Source: an uncultured Thermoplasmatales archaeon (GTDB lineage Archaea; Thermoplasmatota; E2; DHVEG-1). From it: a stretch of 61,499 nt of DNA. Location of the stretch: the NCBI GenBank assembly GCA_964627915.1, contig CAZVKY010000001.1, positions 6,966 through 68,464 of the forward strand. Direction: 5' to 3'. Under the pieces are notes generated by a model, which was not told where the DNA came from, did no database searches, and saw only the letters and a program-made list of their open reading frames with translations. Positions 54,555-56,485 of this stretch are shown in pieces (within the stretch, counting starts at the first letter, position 1; each line of letters starts with the position of its first letter). Made by a program: the position numbers and the translations under genes.

Positions 54555-55751
54555 TTATTGTTCAGGCATGTTCCATTCTTTTTTTAGTTTGTTGAATCGC
54601 TGTTCTTTAATGGCTGTTCTTATGTCATACATGAGTTGCAGCATGAAATAAAGATTATGATAGCTGATAAGATTAAAACCGAGTAGTTCATTGGTTTTGA
54701 GGAGATGATGGATGTATGCTCTTGAATAGTGTTTGCATACCTTGCATTGACAGTTAGGATCAAGGGGTTGATTATCATTTCGATATTTGATAGAGGTGAG
54801 TTTGTATCGGTATTTGTTTTGTTTGCTTCCCTTTGGCGGACGAATATGAGCATAGCCACTGCGAGCGATTCTGGTTGGGGAGACACAATCAAAAAGATCG
54901 ATGCCTCGTTGCACTGATTCAAAGATATCCTCTACCACACCAATACCGAGCAGATGCCGTGGTTTATTTTCAGGTAGTAATGGAACAACCCAGTTGAGGA
55001 TATGATACATATCTAATTTAGATTTACCCAATGATCCTCCAATAGCGAGTCCATCAAATTCCATGCCACCGATTACGTGTGCGCTCTTTTCCCGCAGATC
55101 CTGCCAGTGTCCACCTTGCACGATGCCTATTAGTGCTTGATCTGTTTGATGAACCTGCAGGCATTTTTTTGCCCATTGATGTGTTCGTTTTAAACTTTCA
55201 GTGGTATAGGTTTTGTTGGAAAGTGGAGAGGTGCATTCATCAAGCACTAGGATCATATCTGCACCCAGTTGTTCTTGGATTCGAATAGATTTTTCTGGTG
55301 TGAGATATTGTCTTGAGTTATCATAAATGGATCGAAAGGTTATCTTTTTATCACTAACGCTAGCGATTGATTCACCCTTTTTTTTACTACTGAGATGACC
55401 TTCTCCTGGGAAAAACATTTTTCCTACGGCATGTTCTTTGCCAATTCCAAGAGAAAATGCTTGAAAACCTCCGCTATCAGTGATAAGAGGTTTATCCCAG
55501 TTCATGAATCGATGTAGTCCACCCTGGTTTTCGATAATATCCGCGGTTGGTTGTAACATTAAATGATAGGTGTTACAGATGAGAAGTTGAGCATGTAACT
55601 GTTGTAAATCATCTGAAGATAATGCTTTGACGGTTGCTTTAGTAGCTACCGGCATGAGTGCCGGTGTTTCTATACTGCCATGTTTTACAGTTAACTGTGC
55701 CGTTCGGGCGGTGTTGTCCTCTGCAGTGATCTGAAAGGTAAGATTTCCCAT
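54555..55751 (-). CDS. tgt: tRNA-guanine transglycosylase, bacterial/eukaryal (queuine-type) architecture
   Basis: [62 protein letters not shown], zinc site [28 protein letters not shown]. 398 aa with no C-terminal PUA or archaeosine-type domains. Confidence 0.85.
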
Positions 55752-55798
55752 GAGGGATGTGAAAACGTTTAAAGTGAATTAAATGTTTTCTTATTTGA

Positions 55799-56485
55799 AT
55801 GATAAATGAACTCTTATGGATTGGTTTACTTTTGTTGAGTTTCCTCATTGTTATTTTTTCCTATCGGCTTTTTGGAAAGACTGGATTATATGTTTGGACA
55901 GCAATTGTGGTGATTCTTGCTAATATCCAGGTGATGAAAACTGTGGAGATTTTTGGTTTGGTCACTGCTCTGGGCACTGTGATTTATTCTTCATTGTTTT
56001 TAGTGACCGATATTTTAAATGAGAATCATTCAAAGAAGGATGCACAAAAATCTGTTTGGATTGGTTTTTTTGTTTTACTGGTTACTACAGTTATCATGCA
56101 GATAACCTTGTTTTTTGTTCCTCATGAATCTTCGCTTACGATGAGTGAGGATATTGCTGCAGTGTTTTCTGTGCTTCCACGCATTGCTTTTGCAAGTATC
56201 ATAGCGTATTTGATTTCCCAGACTCATGATGTCTGGTTTTTTAATCGGTTAAAGAAAAAACAAAAGAAAAATCAGTTATGGTTGAGAAATAATCTTTCTA
56301 CGATACTCAGTCAGCTGATTGATAATACGGTGTTTACCCTTGTTGCTTTTGTTGGTGTTTTTTCTTGGGGTATTATCATTCAGATTTTTTTTGTTTCCAT
56401 TATCATGAAAGTTGTGGTCGCTTTTTGTGATACACCATTTGTGTATTGGGCTCGAGTGCTTAAACCAAAAAAAATTGATCATTAA
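55799..56485 (+). CDS. yhhQ: YhhQ/DUF165-family queuosine-precursor transporter
   Basis: 228 aa, 6 TM. HDVWFFNRLKK...LWLRNNLSTILSQLIDNTVFTLVAF matches the DUF165 signature as I recall it. Confidence 0.8.
   Translation: MINELLWIGLLLLSFLIVIFSYRLFGKTGLYVWTAIVVILANIQVMKTVEIFGLVTALGTVIYSSLFLVTDILNENHSKKDAQKSVWIGFFVLLVTTVIMQITLFFVPHESSLTMSEDIAAVFSVLPRIAFASIIAYLISQTHDVWFFNRLKKKQKKNQLWLRNNLSTILSQLIDNTVFTLVAFVGVFSWGIIIQIFFVSIIMKVVVAFCDTPFVYWARVLKPKKIDH

Follow-up and report, generated by a model that had tools for sequence, protein, structure and literature searches.

A bacterial-type Tgt paired with a YhhQ transporter in a Thermoplasmatota archaeon: a candidate Chlamydia-like base-salvage module for tRNA position 34

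What use would an archaeon have for a bacterial-type tRNA-guanine transglycosylase (Tgt)? Textbooks and article introductions, up to a 2026 preprint, treat queuosine as a modification of Bacteria and Eukarya, and archaeosine as that of Archaea. Yet the 61,499-nt stretch analyzed here (the window; contig CAZVKY010000001.1 of an uncultured Thermoplasmatales archaeon) encodes such a Tgt in divergent arrangement with a YhhQ-family transporter. An earlier, sequence-only reading of the window had offered two accounts of this pair, as a laterally acquired queuosine-type modification and salvage module or as a Tgt paralogue with a new substrate. The first is now well supported: the Tgt falls outside the ArcTGT and DpdA families, the pair is conserved among relatives, and searches of this 90.9%-complete genome found no QueF, QueA, QueG or QueH. 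The reading that we favor, tentatively and at a little less than an even chance, is that of a laterally acquired, self-contained and Chlamydia-like base-salvage module for tRNA position 34, which would most likely insert queuine.

The family of the enzyme is clear. The open reading frame (ORF) positions, the sizes (398 and 228 aa) and the 47-nt gap are as the sequence-only reading gave them, and the bacterial Tgt motifs that it quoted, the CxCxxC...H zinc site and YHNLYF are all present (Table 1). With 457 bits on TIGR00430 the Tgt clears the curated equivalog threshold of 306.75, and it reaches 435 bits on PF01702. Pfam finds a single TGT domain in the 398 aa and no PUA or C-terminal C1/C2 domain, in agreement with the proposal that the C-terminal part of ArcTGT is missing. 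A short-form ArcTGT, which shares superfamily and chemistry (7-deazaguanine base exchange), is rejected by a score of 155 bits on the ArcTGT model TIGR00432 (cutoff 350) together with the missing PUA domain; the gene belongs within the bacterial Tgt family. DpdA is rejected by a score of 30.8 bits on NF041059 (cutoff 200), with no dpd-like genes seen among the neighbors of tgt.

We discarded a single-sequence AlphaFold2 (AF2) model with a predicted local distance difference test score (pLDDT) of 34.5 in favor of an alignment-based one (pLDDT 95.9, predicted TM-score 0.93), which Foldseek matches to the TGT of Zymomonas mobilis with a TM-score of 0.93–0.94 and a root-mean-square deviation of about 1.6 Å. 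The Z. mobilis residues Asp102, Asp156, Gln203, Gly229/230 and Asp280 are kept as D92, D171, Q212, G238/G239 and D288; in the HMMER alignment to Z. mobilis Tgt the Cys158 equivalent and the zinc ligands are conserved as well, as are the residues matching K52, N70, R286 and R289, which we take to be tRNA contacts. With the canonical, preQ1-inserting Tgts of Z. mobilis and Escherichia coli the enzyme has in common the equivalog, the fold, the catalytic Asp102/Asp280, Asp156, Gln203, Gly229/230 and the zinc site. It differs from them in lacking Leu231 and Glu235, in carrying His and Leu for Tyr258 and Met260, in having two insertions, and in its lack of a queA link.

The most conspicuous departure is in the specificity loop, which is one residue short and has Lys in the place of Glu235, just as the sequence-only reading had it. 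Three independent alignments (HMMER against Z. mobilis, MAFFT, and an alignment of 121 sequences) agree on its homology and register: G238/G239 correspond to G229/G230 and G242 to G234, S240-L241 replace L231-A232-V233, K243 is the Glu235 equivalent, and the following helix, which begins at K245 in the AF2 model, keeps the same register. All 121 sequences have G238, and conservation of G239 and of G242 is 90% or higher. The canonical enzyme tells guanine and preQ1 apart by a flip of the Leu231/Ala232 peptide, which Glu235 gates (PMC3660597). The elements of that preQ1-recognizing switch are missing here; since the loop is shorter and Lys243 replaces Glu235, the canonical peptide flip would not be able to operate in its usual form.

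The pocket had been put forward as a novelty of this gene, possibly with a new substrate, and that claim is weakened, because the same loop together with HLLGIG is standard in Chlamydiota and Dependentiae and occurs in a wider superclade. As recovered with 50%-identity representatives, the superclade is large and consists mostly of uncultivated lineages, Aenigmatarchaeota among them, which share HLLGIG, a GG-[STA][LFY]-G loop and insertion 1, with a varying residue at the Glu235 position. One of its branches, comprising Chlamydiota, Dependentiae/Babeliales and Berkiella, reads GG-S[LMV]G[K/R] with HLLGIG, a pattern that is the same in 31 Chlamydiota/Dependentiae Tgts and that the archaeal Tgt also shows. 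A YhhQ homologue lies within about 2.4 kb upstream in 24 of 35 Chlamydiota/Dependentiae loci, directly adjacent in most; the Chlamydiota in this comparison are environmental, some lake metagenome-assembled genomes (MAGs) being wrongly labelled ‘Chlamydia trachomatis’. In a sample of 150 Chlamydiia genomes, the lowest-scoring tier (1.0–1.3 Mb, mostly single-contig, consistent with Chlamydiaceae) carries LDELLPF, V[IV]HGG, GG-SLG[R/K]N and HLLGIG in all 10 of the 10 genomes taken from it, and the large-genome top tier has a canonical pocket in 4 of 4 taken. A third pocket variant, GGES(V/I)GY, was seen in two Patescibacteria (L041 and L048); these two sequences and P0129, P0148, P0171, P0226, P0248 and P0253 read GGE[ST][VI]G[YF] and Y[TA]MGVG, with no Glu235 and with both insertions.

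The Chlamydia enzyme appears to be the only characterized member of the short-loop superclade. According to the summary of Yuan et al. 2019 in PMC11570991, the TGT and QPTR of C. trachomatis salvage queuine directly, and non-canonical pocket residues are a feature of tgt-only bacteria (PMC5372724). The archaeal pair shares with this Chlamydia-type system the short loop, HLLGIG, insertion 1 and the YhhQ-family partner, in a genome that likewise has tgt and QPTR and in which no QueF, QueA, QueG or QueH was found. The two differ in that identity between the Tgts is only 36–41%, FDCV of the archaeal clade is FDSS in Chlamydiota, and the archaeal genes are divergent whereas the Chlamydia-type genes are co-directional; moreover, unlike Chlamydia, the archaeal host is of a free-living type, with ArcTGT, ArcS and a predicted preQ0 synthesis of its own. 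On these comparisons, the altered motif would be a Chlamydia-type salvage signature, incompletely matched.

The archaeal clade to which the Tgt belongs numbers 33 loci, from Thermoplasmatota, Woesearchaeota, a bin labelled Methanosarcinales and another labelled Aminicenantes (53–95% identity), and LDECTSP, GG-SLG(K/R)SK and HLLGIG are found in all of them bar one degenerate exception. The next relatives beyond it are ordinary bacteria at 41–46% identity that read GGLSVGE and YLMGVG. In FastTree phylogenies (LG+gamma, 157–168 sequences) the clade is monophyletic with support of 0.89–0.95, Woesearchaeota being basal and Thermoplasmatota forming a nested group (0.95), and the whole of it lies outside the canonical Tgt clade. 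By BLAST, yhhQ adjoins tgt in 28 of the 33 loci, and Pfam adds a further one; the same linkage was seen in 0 of 47 canonical bacterial loci. Pair identity across the Thermoplasmatota carriers is 70–95%. Because the flanking genes are common only to the closest relatives, while the divergent arrangement is kept, the pair itself appears to be the conserved unit across the Thermoplasmatota and Woesearchaeota loci. In a gene-content tally of five families of the same class (197 genomes), a bacterial-type Tgt was present in 32 of the 107 genomes of the window's family and in 10 of 11 in its genus, and all 31 of the full-length Tgt genes of the family have yhhQ ∼230 bp away on the same contig.

The Woesearchaeota carriers (G001–G005; loci L029, L034–L036 and L038) show the pair in a sparser setting. 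QueA was not found in any of the five, and four of them have neither a true QueC nor a second TGT-family gene, ArcTGT included; in those four genomes the pair looks self-sufficient, and these carriers may lack archaeosine altogether. G001 also has a second, canonical Tgt (GGLAIGE; region L217:1664-5468), flanked on both sides by genes for class-II tRNA synthetases of the Asp/Asn/Lys type. Its short-loop Tgt (L029:8292-9590) lies 3 kb from a HisRS gene, and a HisRS gene is also present in the window at 43258-44523, 10 kb from tgt; each may reflect a link to the queuosine-family (Q-family) tRNAs or chance.

The divergent partner was named correctly as YhhQ, scoring 211.5 bits on TIGR00697 (cutoff 50.95) and 164.9 on PF02592 (cutoff 27.2). 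On NF008406, the equivalog model for the E. coli-type preQ0/preQ1 transporter, it scores 53.8, far under the cutoff of 252. Tgt-linked YhhQ copies are 56–96% identical to each other and 34–38% identical to the unlinked paralogues of the window's family, and by this measure seem to form a distinct subtype; the unlinked paralogues adjoin DTD2 rather than que genes. This second, Tgt-unlinked YhhQ subfamily is represented by L210–L215 (e.g. L210:4175-4882 with 5163-6050): DTD2 (archaeal D-aminoacyl-tRNA deacylase, PF04414) lies 3′ of the transporter gene in L210 and L211, and in L212, L214 and L215 an ORF of similar size occupies that position.

The search for que genes that had been suggested gave a divided result, in that the 1.90-Mb genome has a PUA-bearing ArcTGT (650 aa, 560 bits) and an ArcS (alpha type, 481 bits), whereas QueF, QueA and QueG were not found in it. 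Qng1 (PF10343) had no match in the genome, and the control likewise matched no genome. Whereas the Chlamydia-type pair goes without preQ0 synthesis, QueC and QueD are encoded in the window, as expected for archaeosine, and QueC accompanies Tgt in 32 of 32 carriers of the family; of its 107 genomes, one has QueA and one has QueF. Two other families of the class (f8 and f9) are a natural control for the link between pocket and pathway. Their Tgt, present in 32 of 38 genomes, abuts queA, and of the 38 genomes 35 have QueF and none has YhhQ; this Tgt keeps GGL(C/S)IGE with Leu231 and Glu235, is 33–36% identical to the Tgt of the window, and nests in the canonical bacterial clade. There the enzyme is QueA-linked with a canonical pocket, here it is YhhQ-linked with a short loop, and the two represent separate acquisitions. 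Within this one archaeal class, pocket type appears to track pathway type, canonical with de novo synthesis and short-loop with a transporter. The combination of queA-tgt with QueF and QueC in f8/f9 (L086–L093, genomes G164–G198; e.g. L087:4007-5008) is itself an apparent de novo preQ1/epoxyqueuosine (oQ) pathway in archaea.

From family, fold, retained residues, pocket, linkage, gene content and distribution, we infer the base, the target tRNAs and the benefit as follows. YhhQ/QPTR would import a free 7-deazaguanine base made by bacteria, and Tgt would exchange it for G34 in the GUN-anticodon tRNAs (those for Asp, Asn, His and Tyr). No QueA or QueG/QueH maturation would follow insertion, and queuine would give Q34 directly. 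The module would run parallel to, and independently of, the ArcTGT/ArcS/QueC/QueD archaeosine pathway at position 15. Its benefit may lie in better reading of NAU codons in an AT-rich genome; they make up 69–90% of the Asp, Asn, His and Tyr codons here, and the tRNA-Asn(GUU) of the genome has U33-G34-U35. As to the base, with QueC present in all 32 carriers, the dedicated importer points to one that the cell cannot make; and since the importer is kept in preQ0-making cells and the loop is common to a queuine-using enzyme, queuine is the first candidate.

Several observations weigh against queuine, or against a close parallel with Chlamydia. To our knowledge, Q34 has not been demonstrated in any archaeon, nor has anything of the proposed activity been shown biochemically in one. 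tRNA-Asp, -His and -Tyr were not found by ARAGORN and regular-expression search in this fragmented assembly, where ARAGORN gives 36–41 tRNAs in the whole genome; a gap in the assembly, or introns of an unusual kind, is the probable reason why three of the four Q-family tRNAs went unseen. A sister relationship of the archaeal clade to Chlamydiota is not supported, since in the tree rooted with ArcTGT the deep branching of the short-loop groups has a support of 0.64, and the clade keeps Cys158 (DEC) and Gln203 in 34 of 34 sequences, whereas Chlamydiota have Leu (DEL) and His. The loop is assigned to C. trachomatis by way of Chlamydiaceae-like genomes of matching size and of literature summaries. 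Lys or Arg for Glu235 would, taken alone, favor a hydrogen-bond-accepting substituent such as the nitrile of preQ0.

This last point leads to an alternative that we consider unlikely but worth keeping in view, a preQ0-specific G34 transglycosylase for which preQ0, imported by YhhQ or made through QueC, or a derivative of it, would be the final wobble modification. A permanent donor at position 235 would hold the NH-exposed, guanine/preQ0-type conformer, and in 2007 Tidten and colleagues reportedly observed, for the E235Q variant of the Z. mobilis enzyme, a shift in preference toward preQ0. The retention of Cys158 and Gln203, which preQ-using enzymes also have, and the cationic residue at the switch position leave preQ0 in contention; the genome is also predicted to make it, and QueF was not found. 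Glu235, which through the peptide flip presents a carbonyl to the preQ1 aminomethyl group (PMC3660597), is replaced by Lys/Arg clade-wide, and on the transporter side E. coli YhhQ transports preQ0 and archaeal homologues have been proposed to salvage it (PMC5372724). However, Chlamydiaceae-like Tgts share the Lys/Arg loop and the C. trachomatis enzyme is reported to use queuine, so that Lys/Arg does not exclude queuine. An importer of preQ0 would be redundant with the QueC of every carrier in the family, and it is not needed for archaeosine, as most family members have QueC and 65 of the 107 genomes show no YhhQ match. It is doubtful that the clade, instead of making queuosine, finishes the wobble base with preQ0 or some other non-Q 7-deazaguanine peculiar to archaea; if it did, both the state of the wobble position and the substrate specificity would be new for the short-loop superclade, and in the DPANN archaea without ArcTGT and QueC this Tgt would be the sole 7-deazaguanine tRNA enzyme.

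Salvage of preQ1 with no later maturation, a scheme put forward for Bartonella and Pelagibacter, would leave preQ1 at position 34. The gene content matches the tgt + QPTR-only pattern of PMC11570991, Cys158 is kept, and the cell, in which QueF was not found, would be unable to make preQ1; but the proposed preQ1 salvagers keep the canonical GGLAVGE (PMC11570991), while this clade is without Leu231 and Glu235, the aminomethyl-binding elements, and has a cationic Lys/Arg near the expected site of a cationic amine, which makes this account improbable. Least probable of all, to our mind, is a different target or substrate, be it another tRNA position (as a stand-in for ArcTGT in DPANN), another RNA or DNA, or 7-carboxy- or 7-amido-7-deazaguanine (CDG/ADG). 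The four Woesearchaeota carriers that show neither ArcTGT nor a true QueC, the two clade-specific insertions near the active-site face, and the suitability of a cationic residue at 235 for an anionic 7-substituent speak for it, and against it stand the DpdA and ArcTGT scores far under cutoff, the absence of PUA and C-terminal domains in Pfam, the conserved equivalents of K52, N70, R286 and R289 with the zinc subdomain, and, in the Thermoplasmatota carriers, a complete ArcTGT and ArcS of their own with no dpd-like neighbors seen.

Two trivial explanations were also rejected. The pair is no pseudogene remnant, both ORFs being intact and strongly conserved. Nor is it a binning artefact: archaeal genes share the contig and genome (an archaeal Dph2 adjoins the pair, and ArcTGT and ArcS lie elsewhere in the genome), the nearest Tgt relative, at 95% identity, is in a Thermoplasmatota MAG, and the relatives include a closed 1.82-Mb Thermoplasmatales chromosome. 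The G+C contents of tgt and yhhQ, 0.405 and 0.344, are near the window mean of 0.360.

Table 1. Features of the tgt–yhhQ locus and the queD–queC operon, in window coordinates
Feature	Position	Strand	Basis or remark
tgt, bacterial-family tRNA-guanine(34) transglycosylase, short-loop (Chlamydia-like) subtype, 398 aa	54555..55751	-	TIGR00430, PF01702, AF2 model, Foldseek
Zinc-site CxCxxC (CQCKVC), residues 334-339	54735..54752	-	Fourth ligand is the His in YHNLYF at 54645-54662
Insertion 2 (GSKQNKYR), residues 308-315	54807..54830	-	Follows PTRIARSG
HLLGIG, residues 266-271	54939..54956	-	Canonical Tgt has YLMGVG here (His for Tyr258, Leu for Met260); goes together with the short loop across sequences
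Pocket loop GGSLGKSK, residues 238-245	55017..55040	-	One residue shorter than GGL(A/S)VGE; Lys243 at the Glu235 position
LDECTSP, residues 170-176	55224..55244	-	Asp156 and Cys158 equivalents kept; Chlamydiota-type has DEL
Insertion 1, residues 103-127	55371..55445	-	Not in canonical Tgt; modelled with lower confidence, pLDDT of 10-residue blocks across the insertion 90, 63, 83
Divergent intergenic region common to tgt and yhhQ, 47 nt, AT-rich	55752..55798	.	Arrangement kept in relatives
YhhQ/QPTR (COG1738, Vut_1) queuosine-precursor transporter, Tgt-linked subtype, 228 aa	55799..56485	+	TIGR00697, PF02592
queD–queC operon (QueC 46000-46776, QueD 46727-47215)	46000..47215	-	Predicted preQ0 synthesis for archaeosine

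By Pfam, the neighbors of tgt in the window are NfeD, YaaH, Dph2 and a peptidase. The short NfeD gene (54164-54538) is convergent with tgt and has no adjoining SPFH/stomatin partner, and the YaaH-family gene, just upstream of the module, is flanked by tRNA-Ile(GAU) at 53138-53213 (-) and tRNA-Pro(GGG) at 53991-54066 (+); a third tRNA, at 61421-61499 (+), is cut by the window end. On the other side, 3′ of yhhQ, a 214-aa secreted-looking ORF (56581-57225) has no Pfam family and accompanies the pair in none but its closest relatives (L006 and L008). At 36001-38000 the local G+C rises to 0.433, compared with ∼0.35 elsewhere, and Rfam detects no rRNA there.

The view that archaea have no place for queuosine genes had been revised before this work: Castelle et al. 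2021 (PMC8204110) report bacterial Tgt and queuosine genes, linked to QueA/QueH, in DPANN and Methanosarcinales. Those cases, as described there, resemble this Tgt in being bacterial-type, laterally acquired genes in archaeal genomes and differ from it in their QueA/QueH linkage. Our literature search found no description of a YhhQ-linked short-loop pair in Thermoplasmatota. Roughly one genome in three of a Thermoplasmatota family carries such a salvage pair, which is present in Woesearchaeota too; other families of the same Thermoplasmatota class have QueF/Tgt/QueA. The odd pocket of the pair's Tgt now has a place in a large and mostly uncharacterized short-loop Tgt superclade. If the pair is active, one archaeal cell would carry 7-deazaguanines at two tRNA positions, and there would be a nutritional link across domains: these sediment archaea, like eukaryotes, would need a micronutrient from bacteria for decoding.

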